Source: a virus
Taxonomy: Duplodnaviria; Heunggongvirae; Uroviricota; Caudoviricetes
Length of the DNA stretch: 17,337 nt
Direction: 5' to 3' (one strand)
Virus record (IMG/VR): IMGVR_UViG_2778261161_000005
Shown here: one piece after another, positions 2,496 to 17,337 of the stretch
Layout: every line of letters starts with the position of its first letter
Position numbering within the stretch: the stretch's first letter is position 1
Notes under the pieces: model-generated
Seen by the model: the letters and a program-made list of their open reading frames with translations, nothing else
Told to the model about the DNA's origin: nothing
Database searches by the model: none
Translations under genes and position numbers: made by a program

Positions 2496-3170
2496 TTAGG
2501 CCTTTATTGTGTATCTTCTTGGTTTTCCCGAGAAAATCACTGTACCAATTATAGAGCAATTACCGTTAATCTTAATGTAAGGCTCAGGCCAGTTTGGGTT
2601 TAATGCTTTGAGATAACGCTGTGTTCCATCTTCTATCAATCGCTTGAAGGTGGTTTCGCCTGTATCGTGCATCAATGCAATAACGTCGTCACCGTGGCAG
2701 GCAGGGACTTCGGGATCAACAAAAATCATGTCTCCAGGGCGGTACTCATCAATCATTGAATCACCAATCACCCGCAAGATATAAGTCATTTCGCCACAGG
2801 GTACAGGGCAGGGATACGTTTCTGCTGTGCTCAAATCAACCTCAGAATAGCCAACTTCTTTCCATGCTCCGGCCTGTACCCATGATATGACAGGGACTAA
2901 CGTTATTTGTTTGTTAGTGATTGAAACATCAGGTTTTTTTGTGATGTTCGTTGTCTGGTGTTCTTGATCAAGCCATCCGACAGGCAGGTCGAAACATTTT
3001 TCGATGTGCCGTGCCATGCTGTCACCGATATTTTTAGTAGCGCCATCCCCCATAAACCTGCTGGTTTGGGTTGGCTCGCGATCAATCATGGTGGCAAAGG
3101 ATGAATTTCCGCCAACACCATCTCTCAGTTTTCTGGCGTTAGACCGCCGGATGTCATGGATTGTTTTCAT
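2496..3170 (-). CDS. prophage repressor, cI/LexA-like with C-terminal S24 peptidase domain (224 aa)
   Basis: C-terminal half carries the Ser (GDSM) and Lys (TFKRL) motifs of S24 self-cleaving repressors and a candidate Ala-Gly cleavage site (VQAGAW). Divergently arranged with a Cro-like gene. Confidence 0.8.
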   Translation of the reverse strand: MKTIHDIRRSNARKLRDGVGGNSSFATMIDREPTQTSRFMGDGATKNIGDSMARHIEKCFDLPVGWLDQEHQTTNITKKPDVSITNKQITLVPVISWVQAGAWKEVGYSEVDLSTAETYPCPVPCGEMTYILRVIGDSMIDEYRPGDMIFVDPEVPACHGDDVIALMHDTGETTFKRLIEDGTQRYLKALNPNWPEPYIKINGNCSIIGTVIFSGKPRRYTIKA

Positions 3171-3185
3171 AACGAAATTAAAACC

Positions 3186-3209
3186 TTTGTACCGATAAGG
3201 TACAAGTAC
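3186..3209. promoter_or_regulatory. operator-like overlapping palindromes in the repressor/cro divergent intergenic region
   Basis: TTGTACC-GATAA-GGTACAA (3186-3204) overlapping GGTAC-AA-GTACC (3198-3209); three GTAC cores spaced about 10 bp apart between the divergent repressor and cro starts. Confidence 0.45.
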
Positions 3210-3260
3210 CTTGAAGGTTCATTTCAATCATGTAATGTGTATACTGGAGGTACATATTGT

Positions 3261-3461
3261 ATGAAAGCGTATTGGGACTCTTTAACCAAAGAACAGCAGG
3301 GCGAGTTGGCCGGAAAAGTTGGCTCAACACCTGGCTACTTACGGCTGGTTTTCAATGGTTATAAAAAAGCCAGTTTTGTGCTGGCGAAAAAACTTGAGCA
3401 ATGCACGTCAGGTGCAATTACGAAATCTGACTTAAGACCGGATATCTACCGTGACATTTGA
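3261..3461 (+). CDS. Cro-like/YdaS-family small HTH regulator (66 aa)
   Basis: ATG at 3261 with GGAGG SD at 3246-3250; small protein with an HTH-like core (GELAGKVGSTPGYLRLV) and a C-terminal LRPDIY motif; divergent from the S24 repressor. The track ORF 3156..3461 is trimmed. Confidence 0.7.
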   Translation: MKAYWDSLTKEQQGELAGKVGSTPGYLRLVFNGYKKASFVLAKKLEQCTSGAITKSDLRPDIYRDI

Positions 3462-3550
3462 AGAGAAGTATGGCTCCCAACTGGAGCTGATATTTCGTTT
3501 TATCGATCGTGCGCTGGCAATTGGCGTACTGGCGTAAGTGGAGAACGAGC

Positions 3551-4303
3551 ATGAACCTTGAAGCCTTACCAAAATATTACTCCCCAAAATCTCCAAAATT
3601 GAGTGATGCCGCACCGGCGACAGGCTCAGGTGGTTTAACGATTACGGATGTGATGGCTGCGCAGGGGATGGTGCAGTCGAAAGCACCGCTTGGGTTTGCC
3701 TTATTCCTGGCAAAAGCTGGCGTTCAGGATCCTCAGTTTGCGATTGAAGGTCTGCTCAATTACGCGATGGCACTGGATAACCCGACATTGAACAAATTGA
3801 GTGAAGAAATCCGGTTACAGATCATCCCTTACCTTGTGAGTTTTGCCTTTGCTGATTATTCCAGGTCTGCGGCAAGTAAGGCTCGCTGTGAGCCTTGTGC
3901 TGGTACTGGATTTCATAATGTATTGCGCGAAGTGGTGAAATACTCCAGAAGCGGGGAGTCTGTTATCAAGGAAGAGTGGGTGAAGGAACTATGTCAGCAT
4001 TGTCATGGTAAGGGAGAAGTCAGCACAGCGTGCAGAGGGTGTAAGGGTAAAGGTATTGTCCTGGATGAAAAAAGGACCCGGCTTCATGGCGCGCCTGTTT
4101 ATAAGATTTGTGGGCGTTGCAATGGAAACCGGTTTAGTCGTTTACCAACGACACTGGCGCGGTGTCATGTCCAGAAGCTGGTACCAGACCTGACTGATTA
4201 TCAGTGGTACAAAGGATATGCAGATGTCATTGATAAACTGGTTACAAAGTGCTGGCAGGAAGAAGCATATGCTGAGGTGCAATTAAGAAAAGTGACGAGA
4301 TAA
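3551..4303 (+). CDS. quuQ: late-gene antitermination protein Q (QuuQ/QuuD-like, 250 aa)
   Basis: ATG at 3551 with GGAG SD; several Cys-x2-Cys pairs (CEPCAGTG, CQHCHGKG, CRGCKGKG, CGRCNGN) typical of phage-82-type Q proteins; immediately followed by a promoter plus terminator pair. The track ORF 3509..4303 is trimmed. Confidence 0.75.
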   Translation: MNLEALPKYYSPKSPKLSDAAPATGSGGLTITDVMAAQGMVQSKAPLGFALFLAKAGVQDPQFAIEGLLNYAMALDNPTLNKLSEEIRLQIIPYLVSFAFADYSRSAASKARCEPCAGTGFHNVLREVVKYSRSGESVIKEEWVKELCQHCHGKGEVSTACRGCKGKGIVLDEKRTRLHGAPVYKICGRCNGNRFSRLPTTLARCHVQKLVPDLTDYQWYKGYADVIDKLVTKCWQEEAYAEVQLRKVTR

Positions 4304-4334
4304 ATGATTTTCGCCGAAGATGGCGACGTAATGC

Positions 4335-4363
4335 TTGCATTTTTCAAAAAATATGGATAAAAT
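4335..4363 (+). promoter_or_regulatory. pR'-like late promoter
   Basis: TTGCAT (4335-4340), 17-nt spacer, TAAAAT (4358-4363), 32 bp downstream of the Q stop. Confidence 0.6.
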
Positions 4364-4408
4364 TTTTTCAACGATGGGCTTTATATACCCGACGTTAAGA
4401 AAAAGTAG

Positions 4409-4434
4409 AAAACCCGCTGATGAGCGGGTTTTTG
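4409..4434 (+). terminator. tR'-like rho-independent terminator
   Basis: Hairpin AACCCGC-TGATGA-GCGGGTT followed by TTTTT, about 45 nt downstream of the predicted pR' start site. Confidence 0.65.
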
Positions 4435-4718
4435 TGCTTTAAATAGGGTAATAGAGATGTTGAATCTCATTCCGGGATTCATGTTTGTTTACTTATTATT
4501 TATCGGGTGACTTTGCCTGATGTTTAAAATGTTTTCTTCCAGTACTATGTCCCTAGATACAATGAGTCTGCATATTACATTATTAGCAGAGCTATTACGG
4601 TCAAAGTACAGCATAAGCTTTTAAAGCCAATCAACCAGTCATCAAGACAGACGGGGTTATTCATGAAAACTCTCCATGTTTGATTCGATGGGGCCTGAAA
4701 TTAAAGCTTTAATATAGC

Positions 4719-4931
4719 TCATGAAAGGTAAACATTGGCAGCTGAAGGGCCACGCAGACCATTTATCCGGCAAAATTCCACGCGTAATCCGGTGGTAATT
4801 TCTTCTGCATCGCGGAGATTGAGCGCTGAAACATGAAGCTGGACATCGATACGACCATCGGATGGGGTGATAAGACCCTTGCCGCTTTTGCCGTCAAAGG
4901 TTTTGACAATTCCTGTCATTTTACGGGACAA
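4719..4931 (-). CDS. cspF: cold-shock-like protein CspF (70 aa)
   Basis: Translation [27 protein letters not shown]...[10 protein letters not shown] matches the CspF/CspH subfamily as recalled; divergent from cspB as in Qin. Confidence 0.85.
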
Positions 4932-5231
4932 AAAAATTCCTTAATACTGATAACTGGGCGCACTATACACACGTTCCTGAAGAAAGCTATAGTTTTTTGA
5001 TGGGGTTGAAGATGGCTGGATGTCTAAAATAAACATTGCTTCATATGTTCAACTATGCGTTAATGATTGCGTCGGTTTGAAGAACAGACGATATACGAAG
5101 TAGTTTACTAAAGCAGTTCTCATTTCAGGTGTTATTCACTTATTCCTTCTTTGAGTCTCTCCAATTAAGTACGAAGTCGTTTCTGTTATACAAGCCATTT
5201 ATGCCGAAAGGCTCAAGTTAAGGAATGTAGA

Positions 5232-5447
5232 ATGTCAAATAAAATGACTGGTTTAGTAAAATGGTTTAACGCTGATAAAGGTTTTGGCTTTATTTCTCCT
5301 GTTGATGGTAGTAAAGATGTGTTTGTGCATTTTTCTGCGATTCAGAATGATAATTTTCGAACCTTATTTGAAGGTCAAAAGGTTACCTTCTCTGTAGAGA
5401 GTGGTGCTAAAGGTCCTGCAGCAGCAAATGTCATAATTACTGATTAA
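5232..5447 (+). CDS. cspB: cold-shock protein CspB (71 aa)
   Basis: Translation [38 protein letters not shown]... carries the RNP1 (KGFGFI) and RNP2 (VFVHF) motifs; about 270 nt of upstream leader-length DNA as in cspA-family genes. Confidence 0.9.
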
Positions 5448-5728
5448 AATTCATAGTTTGTCTGTATACGATAACGAAGAAGGCTGATGCCTGAGTGGAG
5501 ATACAGACAGAGTGGTGAATATTGGATCTCTTTAATAAATAGTAAGGAGGTCCAATACATGAAACAATGGCCAGCATATTTGGCAATAACTTAATCAGGA
5601 AAAGTATGCTAACCATTGTGGTGAAGTGCAGGTTTGCTGCATGAATAGTTTTACAGCAGAAGCTAACTGCTGGCATAGCAAAACAAAGTGCGTAAGTGGA
5701 TGACTCCCACAAAAAGTACCACAATATT

Positions 5729-5752
5729 AAACCCGCTCAGGCGGGTTTTTTA
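5729..5752. terminator. rho-independent terminator, possibly bidirectional
   Basis: Hairpin AACCCGC-TCAG-GCGGG followed by TTTTTT on the plus strand and a shorter U-run on the minus strand; lies between the cspB region and the convergent minus-strand zinc-ribbon ORF. Confidence 0.55.
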
Positions 5753-5810
5753 TTATCTGCTTTAAATATGTTATTAAAATATAAAAAATACTTGTTACGA
5801 ATAAAATCAA

Positions 5811-6032
5811 TCAAGCTACAGCTTTAAGATTTGTCTGGAATACTTTGTTGCAATGAGGGCAGATCAAAAGGGCACCTTTTTGTACTCTTGAAAAACTGTG
5901 TTCTGACTCTTGGGTGCAGTTTGGGCAGGAACATTTAACGAGATAATTACGGCGTGATTTTGAGTCTTTACGTTCTGACATAGGCTTTTCCTGTATAAAT
6001 GGCCGTATACAGTACACTAAATATGAAAACAT
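5811..6032 (-). CDS. small basic zinc-ribbon protein (CxxC...CxxC), function unknown; the start may be the internal ATG at 5979-5981 (56 aa)
   Basis: Track ORF; two CxxC pairs (CPNC, CPHC) and a basic N-terminus (SERKDSKSRR). The internal ATG has a better SD (AGGAAA) than the first ATG. Confidence 0.45.
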   Translation of the reverse strand: MFSYLVYCIRPFIQEKPMSERKDSKSRRNYLVKCSCPNCTQESEHSFSRVQKGALLICPHCNKVFQTNLKAVA

Positions 6033-6199
6033 ATCTCGTATTATTATTTAATATATGATTTTCTTTTAAAATAATTACCCACATTTTTAATGTGTCTGTT
6101 TTTTAGCGCCGTTGAGAACAACGTTTGCTATAAAAACTAACCCATAGACTCCGATCTTTTCAAACATATTGCACCATCTGTGTACATCGGGGTGAGGAT

Positions 6200-6415
6200 A
6201 TGAAATCAATGGATAAGTTAACAACAGGTATCGCCTATGGCACATCGGCTGGTAATGCTGGTTTCTGGGCATTGCAGTTACTCGATAAAGTAACTCCGTC
6301 ACAGTGGGCTGCAATCGGTGTGCTGGGTAGTCTGGTTTTTGGCCTGCTGACGTATCTGACAAACCTTTATTTCAAGATTAAAGAAGACAGGCGTAAGGTT
6401 GCGAGAAGAGAGTAA
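6200..6415 (+). CDS. essQ: class II (phage-21 S-like) holin/pinholin with dual-start motif
   Basis: Translation [28 protein letters not shown]... is 71 aa with two hydrophobic segments and a charged C-terminus; the MKSM N-terminus gives two possible starts (Met1/Met4); lies directly upstream of the lysis genes. Confidence 0.85.
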
Positions 6416-6419
6416 TCCA

Positions 6420-6971
6420 ATGACACAAGACTATGAACTGGTTGTGAAAGGAGTCCGCAATTTTGAGAATAAAGTGGCGGTAACTGTAGCCTTACGGGAC
6501 AAAAAACGCTTTGACGGTGAAATTTTTGACCTGGACATCTCGCTGGACCGTGTTGAAGGTGCCGCGCTGGAGTTTTATGAGGCAGCAGCCAGAATGAGAA
6601 TCAGACAGGTATTCCTGGATGTTGCTGCCGGGTTATGTGTAGGGGATGAGCAGTCGCCGGAAAAGCGCCCCATAATTTTAGAGGCGCAGAATGTGTGGAT
6701 AACCTACAAAGGAAAGCTACCGGGAAGAATTACTGGTTCTCTGAAGACGCCACCGACGGCATTGCGGTCAGAAAAAGATGATATTGAATCGCCCATTGAA
6801 AAACTGGAGGGCAGCGTCGCTGATCTGAATAAAAAATTGTCGGTGCTGATCCCTTCTGAAGATGAAAAAAAACGCCGCGATGAGCAGTTTGCGGCGTTTT
6901 ACGATTATTGCATTGAAGTTACTCGCAGGAATTTTGTGAAGATTTTTGAGGAGGGTAAATCTCTTCAGTAA
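6420..6971 (+). CDS. YdfR-like (DUF1327) lysis-cassette protein with a long C-terminal extension
   Basis: ATG at 6420 (MTQDYELVVKGVRNFENK...) with its SD inside the holin 3' end; the N-terminal roughly 100 aa resemble YdfR as recalled. The track start at 6399 is a TTG inside the holin gene. Confidence 0.6.
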   Translation: MTQDYELVVKGVRNFENKVAVTVALRDKKRFDGEIFDLDISLDRVEGAALEFYEAAARMRIRQVFLDVAAGLCVGDEQSPEKRPIILEAQNVWITYKGKLPGRITGSLKTPPTALRSEKDDIESPIEKLEGSVADLNKKLSVLIPSEDEKKRRDEQFAAFYDYCIEVTRRNFVKIFEEGKSLQ

Positions 6972-11999: not shown

Positions 12000-13507
12000 T
12001 GGCAATTCTTGATGATGTGATTGGCGTTTTTTCACCAGGATGGAAAGCGGCAAGGCTGCGTTCCCGTGCGGTGATCCAGGCTTATGAGGCCGTAAAAACG
12101 ACGCGGACACACAAAGCCCGGCGGGAAAACCGAACTGCCGACCAGTTAAGCCAGTACGGGGCCGTGTCGTTACGTGAGCAGGCCCGTTACCTTGATAACA
12201 ACCACGATCTGGTCATTGGTGTATTTGACAAGCTGGAAGAACGGGTGGTGGGGAAAAACGGGATTATTGTCGAGCCACATCCGGTATTACGCAATGGGGC
12301 CATTGCCCGTGATCTGGCAGCGGAGATACGCACCCGATGGAGTGAATGGTCTGTCAGTCCGGAAGTCACCGGGCAGTTTACCCGTCCGATGCTGGAACGT
12401 CTGATGTTGCGTACCTGGCTGCGCGATGGTGAGGTGTTTGCCCAGATGGTTTCCGGGCGCATAAACAGCCTGACGCCTTCTGCCGGTGTTCATTTCTGGC
12501 TGGAGGCGCTCGAGCCGGACTTTATTCCCATGACCAGTGATGAGAGCAACAGGCTGAATCAGGGCGTGTTTGTTGATGACTGGGGGCGTCCCGAAAAATA
12601 TCTGGTGTATAAAAGCCGTCCCGTATCCGGACGGCAGATGGAAACCAAAGAAGTGGATGCAGAGCGAATGCTGCATCTTAAATTTGTTCGCCGTCTGCAC
12701 CAGATGCGCGGGACGTCTTTGTTGTCCGGTGTGCTGATCCGCCTCAGTGCCCTGAAAGAGTATGAAGATTCTGAGCTGACTGCAGCAAGGATCGCCGCTG
12801 CTCTGGGGATGTACATCCGGAAAGGCGACGGGCAGAGCTATGAACCGGATGGTAATGGCAGCAAGGATAAGGAACGCGAGCTTACCATTCAGCCAGGCAT
12901 TATTTACGACGATCTGAAACCCGGCGAAGAAATCGGAATGGTGAAGTCGGATCGCCCCAATCCTAATCTTGAAACTTTTCGTAATGGTCAGTTGCGTGCC
13001 GTGGCGGCGGGCAGTCGTCTGAGTTTTTCCAGTACAGCGCGCAACTATAACGGCACTTACAGCGCCCAGCGTCAGGAGCTGGTTGAATCCACTGATGGCT
13101 ACCTGATCCTGCAGGACTGGTTTATTGGTGCCGTCACCCGCCCGATGTATCGTGCCTGGCTGAAACAGGCTGTGGCATCCGGTGTTATCAGGCTACCCCG
13201 CGATCTTGATCGTTCTTCACTGTATACCGCGGTGTATTCCGGACCGGTGATGCCGTGGATTGACCCTGTTAAGGAGGCTGAGGCCTGGAAAATTCAGATT
13301 CGTGGTGGAGCGGCGACAGAATCAGACTGGGTACGTGCAGGTGGTCGTAATCCGGATGATGTCAAACGTCGGCGCAAGGCCGAAATTGATGAAAACCGCA
13401 AGCTGGATCTGGTATTTGATACCGATCCGGCCAGTGATAAAGGAGGCAGCAGTGCCGCAACGAAACGACAGGAGCCGCAGCACACCGACGACCAGTCCGA
13501 AGAATAA
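11999..13507 (+). CDS. portal protein (lambda gpB family), about 502 aa
   Basis: Long ORF directly after the W-like gene, with the size and position expected for a lambda-like portal; ATG at 11999 ([11 protein letters not shown]...). The track ORF 11927..13507 is trimmed. Confidence 0.7.
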
Positions 13508-13520
13508 TTCCTGGTTCAGG

Positions 13521-15461
13521 ATGCAGGCAGGTCACCAGAGTGACGCGGATATTTATATTTATGACGAGATTGGTTTCTGGGGTGTTACGGCGAAGCAGTT
13601 TATCAGTGATCTGAATGCACTGGGCGATATCACCCACATTAAGGGACGCTTCCTGAACAACATTAACGCGGTCAGTAAAACAGACTTTGCTGATAAGCGT
13701 GGTATGCGTTATGTGCGGGTTAACGCTCCTGCAGGTGCAACATCTGGAAAATATTACCCTGTTGTTGTTATGCGTTCTGCTGGCTCAGTAAGCGAACTGG
13801 CATCAAGGGTCATTATCACCACGGCAACGCGAACCGCAGGCGATCCGATGAATAACTGCGAGTTTAACGGATTTGTTATGCCTGGTGGCTGGACTGACAG
13901 GGGGCGTTATGCTTATGGAATGTTCTGGCAATATCAAAACAATGAACGAGCCATCCACTCAATAATGATGAGTAATAAGGGCGATGATTTGCGCTCTGTG
14001 TTCTATGTTGATGGCGCTGCTTTCCCTGTTTTTGCGTTTATCGAAGATGGCCTGTCAATATCCGCACCTGGTGCTGATCTCGTTGTTAATGATACGACCT
14101 ATAAGTTTGGGGCAACAAATCCAGCGACTGAATGTATCGCGGCGGACGTTATCCTTGATTTTAAGAGTGGGCGTGGTTTTTATGAGTCTCATTCGTTAAT
14201 CGTTAACGATAACTTGTCGTGCAAAAAACTTTTTGCCACAGACGAAATTGTAGCGCGTGGTGGTAATCAGATTCGAATGATAGGTGGGGAGTATGGTGCA
14301 TTATGGCGTAATGATGGCGCTAAAACTTACCTGCTGCTTACCAATCAAGGTGATGTTTATGGTGGCTGGAATACATTAAGACCGTTTGCTATTGATAACG
14401 CAACCGGCGAGCTGGTTATTGGAACCAAACTGTCCGCAAGTCTGAACGGTAATGCATTAACAGCAACAAAGCTGCAAACGCCAAGACGGGTTTCTGGTGT
14501 TGAGTTTGATGGTTCCAAAGATATTACTTTAACCGCCGCGCATGTGGCTGCTTTTGCCAGAAGAGCAACGGATACGTATGCCGATGCGGATGGGGGCGTT
14601 CCATGGAATGCCGAATCAGGCGCTTACAATGTCACCCGCTCTGGCGACAGCTATATTCTGGTTAACTTCTATACCGGAGTCGGAAGTTGCCGGACCCTGC
14701 AGATGAAGGCGCATTACAGAAATGGAGGTCTGTTCTACCGTTCCTCAAGAGATGGCTATGGTTTTGAGGAAGACTGGGCAGAAGTTTATACCTCGAAAAA
14801 TCTTCCACCAGAAAGCTACCCAGTCGGCGCACCAATCCCGTGGCCATCAGATACCGTTCCGTCTGGTTATGCCCTGATGCAGGGGCAGACTTTTGACAAA
14901 TCTGCATACCCGAAACTTGCAGCCGCTTATCCGTCAGGCGTGATCCCTGATATGCGTAGCTGGACGATTAAGGGCAAACCTGCCAGTGGTCGGGCCGTAT
15001 TGTCTCAGGAACAGGACGGCATTAAATCGCACACCCACAGCGCCAGCGCATCCAGTACGGATTTGGGGACGAAAACCACATCGTCGTTTGATTACGGCAC
15101 TAAATCCACGAATAACACCGGGGCGCATACGCACAGTGTGAGCGGTACAGCCGCAAGTGCCGGAAACCATACTCATAGTGTCACAGGCGCATCAGCAGTC
15201 AGCCAGTGGTCACAAAATGGGTCAGTACATAAGGTAGTGTCTGCGGCCAGTGTGAATACAAGTGCTGCAGGAGCGCACACTCATAGTGTTAGCGGCACAG
15301 CCGCATCTGCAGGTGCTCACGCACATACTGTCGGTATTGGTGCTCATACGCACTCTGTTGCGATTGGCTCACATGGACACACTATCACCGTTAACGCTGC
15401 TGGTAACGCGGAAAACACCGTCAAAAACATCGCATTTAACTACATTGTGAGGCTTGCATAA
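13521..15461 (+). CDS. chimeric ORF: ClpP-type prohead protease N-terminus (about 37 aa) fused in frame to a side tail fibre protein (Stf-like)
   Basis: First ATG after the portal stop; the N-terminus [28 protein letters not shown] matches the start of ClpP-family prohead proteases, then the sequence switches to tail-fibre-like repeats and ends with a tail-collar region ([42 protein letters not shown]), His-rich HxH repeats and [11 protein letters not shown]. The track ORF 13260..15461 overlaps the portal in another frame. Confidence 0.65.
15121..15313 (+). repeat. imperfect direct repeats of about 43 bp within the stf 3' region
   Basis: GGGCGCATACGCACAGTGTGAGCGGTACAGCCGCAAGTGCCGG (15121-15163) and GGAGCGCACACTCATAGTGTTAGCGGCACAGCCGCATCTGCAGG (15270-15313), both encoding [15 protein letters not shown]. 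Confidence 0.7.
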
Positions 15462-16036
15462 TGGCATTCAGAATGAGTGAACAACCACGGACCATAAAAA
15501 TTTATAATCTGCTGGCCGGAACTAATGAATTTATTGGTGAAGGTGACGCATATATTCCGCCTCATACAGGTCTGCCAGCAAACAGTACCGATATTGCACC
15601 GCCAGATATTCCGGCAGGCTTCGTGGCTGTTTTCAACAGTGATGAGGCATCGTGGCATCTCGTTGAAGACCATCGGGGTAAAACGGTTTATGACGTAGCG
15701 TCAGGGGACGCGTTATTTATTTCTGAACTCGGTCCGTTACCGGAAAATGTTACCTGGTTATCGCCGGAAGGGGAGTTTCAGAAGTGGAACGGCACAGCCT
15801 GGGTGAAAGATGCAGAAGCAGAAAAACTGTTCCGGATCCGGGAGGCGGAAGAAACAAAAAACAGCCTGATGCAGGTAGCCAGTGAGCATATTGCGCCGCT
15901 TCAGGATGCTGCAGATCTGGAAATTGCAACGGAGGAAGAAATCTCGTTGCTGGAAGCATGGAAAAAGTATCGGGTATTGCTGAACCGTGTTGATACGTCA
16001 ACTGCACAGGATATTGAATGGCCAGCACTGCCGTAG
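15461..16036 (+). CDS. tail fibre assembly protein (Tfa), 191 aa
   Basis: Translation [39 protein letters not shown]... matches TfaQ/TfaR-type proteins as recalled; start overlaps the stf stop (TAATG). Confidence 0.85.
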
Positions 16037-16133
16037 GGTAAAACATATAAATTCTATAATTAGATGTATCTTTCCATTTACGGCAAGGAAGGGGGCTTGG
16101 AAGACGTAAAGCATCTCACACCAAGATTATTTT

Positions 16134-16724
16134 TTATATGTCAGGTGTCTGAAGTTTTGCTTTGGCTCTTAAAATGGTTTGCCGCGAGGTTTTGAATTCC
16201 CGGGCAATGGCACTTATACTTACACCTGACTTAATCCGTTCGAATACCACCTGTTTCTGTTCTTCATTTAACACAGGTGGTCGACCAAAACGTTTCCCTG
16301 CGCCCCGGGCTCTTACTATCCCGGAATGAGTGCGTTCAAGTAAAAGGTCTCGTTCAAATTCAGCGACTGCTGAAATTACTTGCATCATCATTTTTCCTGT
16401 TGGACTGGTCAGGTCAATGCCCCCCAATGCTAAGCAATGCACTCTGATACCTGTTTCGGTCAGTTGTTCCACTGTTTTCCTGATATCCATTGCATTACAA
16501 CCAAGGCGATCCAGTTTTGTCACAATCAATTGATCACCACATTTCAGGCGAGCAAGCAACCGGTTAAAACCAGGACGCTCACTGGTTGCTGCTGAGCCGC
16601 TAATGTGTTCTTCGATTATTTGCTGAGGTTTGATTTTAAAACCTGCACTTTCGATTTCCCGGCGTTGATTTTCGGTGGTCTGATCCAGCGTTGATATCCG
16701 ACAGTAAGCAAAAATTCGAGACAT
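16134..16724 (-). CDS. serine recombinase (resolvase/DNA-invertase family), 196 aa
   Basis: N-terminal catalytic motif [10 protein letters not shown] with the serine nucleophile, and a C-terminal HTH; sits in the position of pin in Rac/Qin-type prophages but is not close to canonical Pin/Gin/Hin by eye. Confidence 0.8.
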
Positions 16725-17103
16725 AGTGAGACTCTATACGAAATTGGTGTACATATCATAATGCATATCCAAAAATTATTTCGCTTATTATTGTACATAT
16801 TTGTATGTATACGTTCGAAAATAAACGAATTCGGATGCAGTCCCGTAATTTTGGTGTAACCAAAAATCGATTTTTTGAAAAATGGCTTTAACTCGGTTTG
16901 TTTTTCGAACTCCGGGCGGACTCGAGGAAGACGAATAATAGTGTTGTATGTTATTTCAACCAGATTTTAAGTTGTTTGGTCGTGGAAAAGTGGAGCAAAA
17001 TGTTGTTAAAGTGGAAAAATGGTAAAAAAAGTAGGTTGTTGCGGAATAACGTAGTTGTTGATATTTTTTTAATGCATTGAAAAATTATTTTTCAGGGGGG
17101 GTA

Positions 17104-17337
17104 TTACACTTTACCATTTAAATTTTGGTTGTCTTTAAGAACTGATATCGCTGTTTGTAATAATTCTTTGTTATCCAGCCATGACTTTTTCTTTATGTTT
17201 CCTTCAATGTAATCAAGCAATGTTCTGGTATTGATAGGTCTTCCCTGTTTTGCTACTTCCACGACAGCATCTCCCAGGATAATTCTGACTTCAGGAAGCT
17301 GCGCAGGGAACCACTTTAGGGTGTCTTTTGATTTCAT
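17104..17337 (-). CDS. ydfK: YdfK/YnaE-family small prophage protein (77 aa)
   Basis: Translation MKSKDTLKWFPAQLPEVRIILGDAVVEVAKQGRPINTRTLLDYIEG... matches YdfK/YnaE as recalled; the start codon is the last three bases of the window. Confidence 0.75.
   Translation of the reverse strand: MKSKDTLKWFPAQLPEVRIILGDAVVEVAKQGRPINTRTLLDYIEGNIKKKSWLDNKELLQTAISVLKDNQNLNGKV

Follow-up and report, generated by a model that had tools for sequence, protein, structure and literature searches.

The pinR locus

The DNA analysed here, called the window throughout, is a 17 337 nucleotide stretch of a tailed phage (Caudoviricetes; IMG/VR record IMGVR_UViG_2778261161_000005), and the gene under study, pinR, encodes a small serine recombinase beside the tail fibre genes. 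The 196 amino acid open reading frame (ORF) occupies positions 16134-16724 on the minus strand, and its product contains a Pfam Resolvase domain (PF00239, 2.5e-36) followed by a resolvase-type helix-turn-helix (HTH_7, PF02796, 3.8e-11). The tail fibre assembly gene tfa (15461-16036, plus strand; Pfam Caudo_TAP, 2.1e-43) is present in a single copy and is convergent with pinR. On the other flank of the module, in prophages and viable phages alike, lies a ydfK/ynaE homologue (17104-17337, minus strand; PF27475 YnaE and RefSeq annotation of identical DNA), and the sequence between the two genes, 16725-17103, is intergenic and upstream of pinR. What is new here is the recognition of PinR, and of its near-identical counterpart PinQ, as the remnant of a Tn3-family transposon resolvase in which a catalytic arginine has been mutated.

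The window recombinase is E. coli PinR, a gene that is already known and has long been annotated. The protein is 100% identical to PinR of E. coli K-12 (b1374, Rac prophage) and differs at two residues (99% identity) from PinQ (b1545, Qin prophage), and in many E. coli chromosomes a 99.9% identical stretch carries the RefSeq labels stfR, tail fibre assembly, pinR and ydfK. The same tfa-pin-ydfK/ynaE neighbourhood was confirmed in K-12 Rac and Qin, where pinR and pinQ are intact and the adjoining genes are truncated. The K-12 loci share with the window the neighbourhood, the cysteine at codon 76 and the relics of a resolution site (res) and a terminal inverted repeat (IR) described below, and the gene itself shows no substantive difference; the window prophage differs in having another internal deletion and a somewhat better preserved res relic.

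A protein identical to PinR over its whole length is also encoded in the viable lambdoid phages HannyBb, mEp460_ev081, 2H10, Tritos and PhiR63_1. The gene order in mEp460_ev081 and 2H10 is lom, stf, tfa, recombinase, ydfK-like and int. HannyBb has other tail fibre genes and the same recombinase module, with homology beginning in the final ~110 bp of tfa. Viable lambdoid phages normally carry tfa, pinR and ydfK in this single-orientation layout, which is no artefact of deletion.

PinR is related to transposon resolvases

The nearest relatives of PinR, at 77-84% identity, are the TnpR resolvases of Tn3-family transposons. PinR was 84% identical by global alignment to the TnpR of a Tn3-family element on an E. 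coli plasmid (L032) and 77% identical to that of a Shewanella transposon (L015), and homologues at 60-84% identity sit divergently beside Tn3-family transposase genes. The Shewanella homologue is divergent from a 1033 amino acid ORF with DDE_Tnp_Tn3 and DUF4158 domains, within a 9.4 kb transposon that has 38 bp IRs, GGGGTCCGCTTGGAAAACGGAAAATATCCTACGCTAAG, at both ends. On plasmid L032 the gene lies in a compact 3.8 kb element (2824-6637) with the same IRs, and around 250 PLSDB records of E. coli IncI/K/FIB-type plasmids carry a homologue at 80-90% identity. A tblastn survey placed TnpA sequence beside homologues in L015, L017, L018, L032 and L033, and the nearest homologues are tnpR genes beside tnpA in IR-bounded elements (L015, L032/L033 and L017). 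The PGAP label for the plasmid transposase, 'Tn3 family transposase', gave no name for the element. Plasmid papers annotate the resolvase beside Tn5403 tnpA as 'pinR', and the plasmid and Shewanella elements may be Tn5403-like, a link which comes from literature annotations.

Comparison of the window with the plasmid element by blastn generated one colinear alignment, 83% identical over 721 nucleotides (window 16804-16089). The alignment spans the second res subsite, the whole of tnpR and the 8 bp spacer that follows the stop codon, and runs up to the last base of the IR, where it stops. Homology of the chromosomal pinR and pinQ genes of many E. coli genomes likewise ends at position 3805-3807 of the 3814 bp transposon. 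The IR relic lies at 16091-16125 (plus strand), is of the 38 bp Tn3-family type, and matches the Shewanella/plasmid IR better than any other sequence in the window. The relic shows where DNA of transposon origin stops; it has its GGGG outer end at 16091 and points into pinR, lying 8 bp past the pinR stop codon exactly as in plasmid L032. A terminal IR relic adjoins the gene on one side and a res array lies directly upstream on the other.

The rest of the transposon was not found. No TnpA similarity was detected in the window, and the tblastn survey gave none for the prophage and phage loci; no tnpA remnant was found between res and ydfK, and the sequence beyond res subsite I is unrelated to the transposon. 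As neither tnpA nor a second IR is present, the window holds a remnant and not a transposon.

The relationship to the invertases is far weaker. The first-pass annotation had noted that the recombinase was less similar to canonical Pin than expected, and this was borne out: PinR is 39% identical to the DNA invertase PinE, and PinE is 38% identical to gamma-delta resolvase, so that a resolvase stands as close to PinE as PinR does. The bit score of PinR was 105 with Gin and 82 with gamma-delta resolvase. The characterised Hin, Gin, Cin and Pin invertases share roughly 60% identity or more among themselves, a kinship which PinR lacks, being 36-39% identical to PinE and the phage invertases found. 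What it has in common with them is the small serine recombinase fold, a GRPP arm before the helix-turn-helix, a position beside phage tail fibre genes and a historical name, whereas it has neither an inverted crossover pair nor alternative tail fibre ends and its closest relatives are transposon resolvases. On these alignments PinR is not a Pin/Gin/Hin/Cin-type invertase and is to be regarded as a Tn3-family tnpR remnant.

A decayed res array upstream of pinR

The region upstream of pinR was compared with that of homologues in species-representative genomes. Within ~110 bp before the ATG, half-sites of the form TGTmCGAAA/TTTCGkACA were found at fixed distances from the start codon in all the relatives and in the window. 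The array comprises a 26 bp palindromic site, a 14 bp spacer, a 32 bp site, a spacer of ~11 bp and a third site of ~21 bp. A resolvase res site is laid out in this way.

In the window all three subsites can be placed on the minus strand. Subsite I, in the position of the crossover site, is a decayed 26 bp relic at 16812-16837, CATCCGAATTCGTTTATTTTCGAACG; in the transposon copies TGACCGAAAmCGnnCGGTTTCGkACA stands equally far from the ATG. Subsite II, at 16766-16797, TGTACAATAATAAGCGAAATAATTTTTGGATA, is a decayed relic of 32 bp which follows site I after the same 14 bp spacer and is colinear with TGTmCGAAAG...TTTCGkAyA (32 bp). The promoter-proximal subsite III, at 16735-16755, TATGTACACCAATTTCGTATA, retains its right half-site. 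A TATGAT box at 16755-16760 (TATAAT in the transposon copies) overlaps the upstream edge of subsite III; it was recognised by eye and was not listed by a promoter scan, which gave nothing above chance in the res region. An Rfam scan of the intergenic region was also negative.

A half-site matrix was built from the transposon copies and five half-sites were scored in register-aligned copies. The transposon and plasmid copies yielded 11-16 bits for subsite I, 10.7-15.8 for subsite II and 10.5-15.2 for subsite III. The corresponding window values were 4.8/7.3, 6.2/8.8 and 12.7, and those of K-12 pinR were -1.7/7.3, 4.8/4.0 and 12.7. With subsites I and II scoring so low, it is doubtful that the window array is functional. 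A scan of the whole window with the same matrix gave 21 hits against 21.9 expected and no second res-like array; the sole strong isolated half-site, at 16453-16462, lies inside the pinR coding sequence (CDS), has no partner and was discarded.

Decay of the sites was also apparent between phage lineages. Between the window and mEp460 (L003), the res relic differs at 13 of 113 positions (11.5%) and the adjoining spacer at 7 of 47 (15%), against only four of 591, all synonymous, in the CDS. Either a recent gene conversion of the CDS or rapid decay of the sites could underlie such a contrast between CDS and flank, in comparison with mEp460 or K-12.

The plasmid and Shewanella elements have the same res layout as the window, the same distances from the ATG and the same 8 bp between the stop codon and the 38 bp IR, and differ from it in keeping tnpA, both IRs, high-scoring half-sites and the catalytic arginine considered below, none of which the window retains. 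The likeness extends to Tn3/gamma-delta resolvase, in domain architecture, in the other catalytic residues and in a three-subsite res between divergent tnpA and tnpR. The TGTCCG with which the half-site begins resembles the gamma-delta half-site. PinR is, however, only 33% identical to that enzyme, has Cys in place of Arg71, and belongs to a group with different res spacings: subsite I is 28 bp in gamma-delta and 26 bp in the PinR type.

Two Erwinia loci showed other forms of the array. In Erwinia oleae (L019, 1268-2652) two paralogous recombinase genes lie divergently, back to back, and half-site arrays fill the ~200 bp between them. Erwinia phage LS-2018a (L005, 5800-6579) encodes a 61% identical homologue with Arg76, and the three-subsite array of this locus is intact; here TGTACTAAA takes the place of TGTmCGAAA in the half-sites, as if binding specificity had co-evolved in this phage-borne copy.

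Replacement of a catalytic arginine

The residues expected of an active small serine recombinase (Y6, R8, S10, D36, R68 and R71 in Tn3 numbering) were located by alignment. Y7, R9, S11 and R73 are present in PinR, and the catalytic serine (codon 11, 16692-16694, minus strand; equivalent to gamma-delta Ser10) is intact. The set is incomplete: alignments to Gin and gamma-delta place codon 76, TGT (16497-16499, minus strand), at the position of Tn3/gamma-delta Arg71, and the codon encodes Cys, where the plasmid copy has CGT. By our own reading of the alignment the D36 position is occupied by E39, as it is in the relatives.

In the family alignment position 76 is Arg in 115 of 120 cluster representatives. 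The five clusters with Cys are all of phage type and hold 2148, 1066, 374, 359 and 6 member sequences; for one of these clusters, identity to the window protein is no more than 85%. In Tn3 resolvase, the R71A and R71K substitutions abolish resolution in vivo, give no recombination products and slow cleavage ~1000-fold, and leave binding to site I intact (PMC2794168).

Alleles with Arg76 are rare in a prophage context; two (P0006 and P0008) were considered as ancestral intermediates and rejected, being mosaics with the plasmid transposon copy. In the two prophage-context mosaic loci (L035, 5001-5591; L036, 38-628) part of the gene, and in L035 also the proximal res, is ~97% identical to the plasmid transposon copy. 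These mosaic alleles indicate that recombination between the plasmid transposon and the prophage relic occasionally restores Arg76.

These observations bear on whether PinR could still function as a resolvase at the res upstream of its own gene, resolving, for instance, tandem prophages or phage genome dimers with directly repeated res sites. The res relic is colinear with that of functional transposon copies, the intact ORF is under purifying selection and the module is present in viable phages; in addition, relatives on plasmid L032 and in phage L005 combine intact arrays with Arg76. Subsites I and II are, however, decayed and vary between phage lineages, and the catalytic Arg71 is Cys. Lambdoid phages package their DNA from concatemers and integrate by a tyrosine integrase, and against this background there is no evident need for resolution. 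We consider resolution by PinR very improbable.

Absence of an invertible tail fibre segment

The first-pass annotation had described a serine recombinase beside stf/tfa with no detectable invertible segment, a single stf/tfa set in one orientation and no convincing inverted pair of hix- or gix-like sites. Each of these observations held. The window has a single stf/tfa set, in one orientation, as have the viable phages mEp460_ev081, 2H10 and HannyBb, and alternative tail fibre ends in the opposite orientation were found neither in the window nor in these phages. The core of the e14 pix site (CCTTCTCCCAAACCAA) and a degenerate 26 bp hix/gix consensus both failed to match anywhere in the window at three or fewer mismatches, and no e14 sequence was present within it.

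HK225 was tried as a textbook inversion control and set aside; as its layout is no clear inversion module, e14 was used instead. An inverted-repeat finder ranked the e14 pix pair first (21 nucleotides, 95%, 1797 nucleotides apart), and with the same settings it returned for 13600-17337 only a 17 nucleotide, 82% pair inside two coding regions, leaving no credible crossover pair and no paired inverted sites bracketing stf/tfa. Individual candidates were inspected and rejected. With 79-82% complementarity and positions in or beside coding sequence, the inverted pairs 16762-16780/17159-17177 and 16287-16303/17301-17317 are of the kind that chance gives. A gix-like half-site at 16074-16099 was dismissed, its pinR-proximal part, from 16091 onward, being by alignment the outer tip of the transposon IR relic. 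The palindrome CCAAAAATCGATTTTTTG at 16860-16877, which the transposon copies lack and which lies immediately beyond the DNA of transposon origin, has arms of only ~8 bp, no matching outer half-sites and no partner, and was not accepted as a hix-like crossover site. In mEp460, HannyBb and K-12 pinR and pinQ the palindrome carries a symmetric double change (A to C in one arm, T to G in the other) which keeps the dyad; this compensated change hints at a protein-binding site or an RNA stem.

What found no support was the premise behind these observations, that the gene belongs to the tail fibre invertases and that its segment has been lost or lies hidden. In that model, implicit in the first-pass annotation, PinR would be a Pin-type invertase whose invertible segment was deleted from a defective prophage. 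The prophage is indeed deleted elsewhere (junction at 13626-13642), and genuine invertases can hold a similar position in other lambdoid phages (HK225). The model is contradicted by the identical tfa-pinR-ydfK arrangement, with one stf/tfa set, in the viable phages mEp460_ev081, 2H10 and HannyBb, and the gene has an IR relic and a res relic on its flanks, is kin to tnpR and shares only 39% identity with PinE. We regard it as scarcely credible. Resolvases act on two directly repeated res sites and not on inverted crossover sites; if PinR is a resolvase remnant, then no invertible tail fibre segment is to be expected.

Retention of the reading frame

The window allele was compared with a Cys76 allele diverged by 15% at the protein level. 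The 26 synonymous and 34 nonsynonymous differences correspond to a dN/dS of 0.37 (binomial p = 5e-4), demonstrating from the pattern of substitutions that the pinR ORF has been under purifying selection. The helix-turn-helix remains close to that of the transposon enzymes, and the promoter-proximal half-site of subsite III is retained. Tn3-type resolvases double as repressors through res. With the ORF, the helix-turn-helix and subsite III all kept, and with resolvases known as repressors, a DNA-binding role would be the most economical reading. One preprint describes PinR-dependent repression of antioxidant genes, which gives weak support to a regulatory role.

The same data can be set against the view that PinR is a functionless hitch-hiker, a dead transposon gene spread with the phage module by recombination. 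In its favour are the loss of a catalytic residue and of tnpA and the decay of res; recent spread, and not selection, could account for a CDS so nearly identical across phages, and frameshifted copies exist (L025 and L026). A dead gene would not be expected to show the dN/dS value given above across 15% protein divergence with no stop codons, nor to have stayed whole in K-12 Rac and Qin amid truncated neighbours, and deletion phenotypes have been reported. There is in our judgement only a small chance that the gene is without function.

A probable stranded resolvase, and the reported inversion of e14

The history that would account for these data begins in a lambdoid phage, with a Tn3-family transposon landing just downstream of tfa. 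Loss of the transposase gene and of the opposite transposon end would have followed, with the right end (IR, tnpR and res) surviving. In the phage-borne lineage subsites I and II would have lost most of their half-site matches and the essential Arg71 would have become Cys. PinR may owe its survival to sequence-specific binding of DNA, by which it would repress its own gene and might regulate other targets too; any remaining strand exchange would be residual. PinR would accordingly be a stranded resolvase, probably crippled in catalysis and kept for binding DNA. Of the elements of this history, the data establish the origin from a transposon, the architecture of the sites, the change from Arg to Cys and the purifying selection. 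We assign a probability of about 0.7 to this reading as a whole, in which the pinR module is taken, on comparative grounds, as the IR-tnpR-res right end of a Tn3-family transposon stranded between tfa and ydfK, jointly with the probable loss of catalysis and the DNA-binding role.

Several points weigh against it. The score of the IR relic alone is only ~3 standard deviations above shuffled sequence, and one shuffle scored higher; the relic is convincing because of its exact position and register with the plasmid copy and not because of its score. As the transposon copies served to train the half-site matrix, their high scores are partly circular; the gap is nonetheless large. Mosaic recombination among prophages could distort both the dN/dS value and the contrast between CDS and flank. 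The loss of catalysis and the regulatory role are predictions, and the Tn3 R71 mutants were described as 'not inert', the data being for Ala and Lys substitutions in Tn3 resolvase (PMC2794168). The most direct objection is experimental: overproduction of PinQ is reported to raise the fraction of inverted e14 P segment from ~30% to ~88%, deletion of pinQ to lower it, and PinR to behave alike (PMC12529663).

That paper (Kirigo et al., NAR 2025; PMC12529663) reports that PinQ inverts the 1797 bp P segment of e14 in trans and thereby blocks adsorption of T2, and treats PinR as equivalent; its authors found no inversions within Rac or Qin. The first-pass annotation had suggested that the recombinase might be an orphan, act on a distant site or have a different role. 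These alternatives do bracket real possibilities, distant action having been published for PinR and PinQ, and it was only the invertase family assumed in framing them that lacked support. As trans-acting PinQ and PinR are already in print (PMC12529663), neither the distant-site option nor the missing local target is new.

The main rival to a stranded resolvase is therefore an active invertase. PinR and PinQ would invert the 1.8 kb P segment of e14 at pix, a target elsewhere in the genome, and the resulting chimeric StfE2 would block T2 adsorption. The experiments were performed with PinQ, two amino acids from the window protein, and comprise inversion in T2 survivors and orientation qPCR with and without PinQ overproduction; the effect is lost upon deletion of stfP, stfE or e14 (PMC12529663). 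By manual alignment, the inner pix sequence and the family subsite I share an A-tract and a CC/CG core and match at 14 of 26 positions. The model sits uneasily with the features of PinR, which has Cys at the catalytic Arg71, as has PinQ, and whose relatives are transposon resolvases recognising TGTmCGAAA half-sites and not the TTCTCC outer half of pix. Selection by T2 for resistant, inverted cells could moreover enrich one orientation without catalysis by PinQ. Neither expression of PinQ in a pinE-deleted strain nor a catalytic-serine control was found in the sections and terms examined of that paper, and term searches of it gave no mention of transposon ancestry or of the catalytic arginine (PMC12529663). 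Catalysis by PinQ and PinR themselves we consider unlikely, with a minor but real chance of being correct.

A more extreme form of the stranded resolvase reading takes in the reported inversion as well. PinR and PinQ may be an exapted resolvase in which catalysis was lost early in the phage-borne history, and which was retained purely as a DNA-binding repressor or as a non-catalytic partner biasing another recombinase such as PinE; the inversion attributed to PinQ would then be catalysed by PinE, with an indirect part for PinQ. This is a serious possibility, if one which falls short of even odds.

The reclassification has practical consequences. It explains the missing segment, and it offers a sharp and inexpensive way to test whether, as claimed in 2025, the inversion of e14 DNA in defence against phage is the work of PinQ itself. 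The name 'Pin', and annotation pipelines which spread 'DNA invertase from prophage Rac' to transposon resolvases, suggest the wrong mechanism.

Other features of the window

The single-copy tail fibre ORF (13260-15461, plus strand; Pfam Gp34_trimer, Collar and Phage_fiber) consists of the C-terminal part of stf fused to upstream head gene sequence. Comparison with the intact prophage of E. coli O145:H28 RM9872 identifies positions 13626-13642 as the junction of a ~16 kb deletion, placed from alignments, at which a ClpP-like prohead protease/capsid gene runs into the middle of stf. The alignments of both flanks cover the ~17 shared bases at the junction, which indicates that the tail fibre ORF is a fusion and that the prophage is defective.

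A full-length match to Rfam IS009 (RF02111) was found at 15804-16002 (plus strand), within the 3' part of the tfa CDS, with 221 bits against a gathering score of 117. Finally, pinR at 99-100% identity was present on contigs binned with metagenome-assembled genomes of Alistipes, Draconibacterium and Caldithrix (L007, L010 and L011), probably through E. coli contamination or mis-binning.

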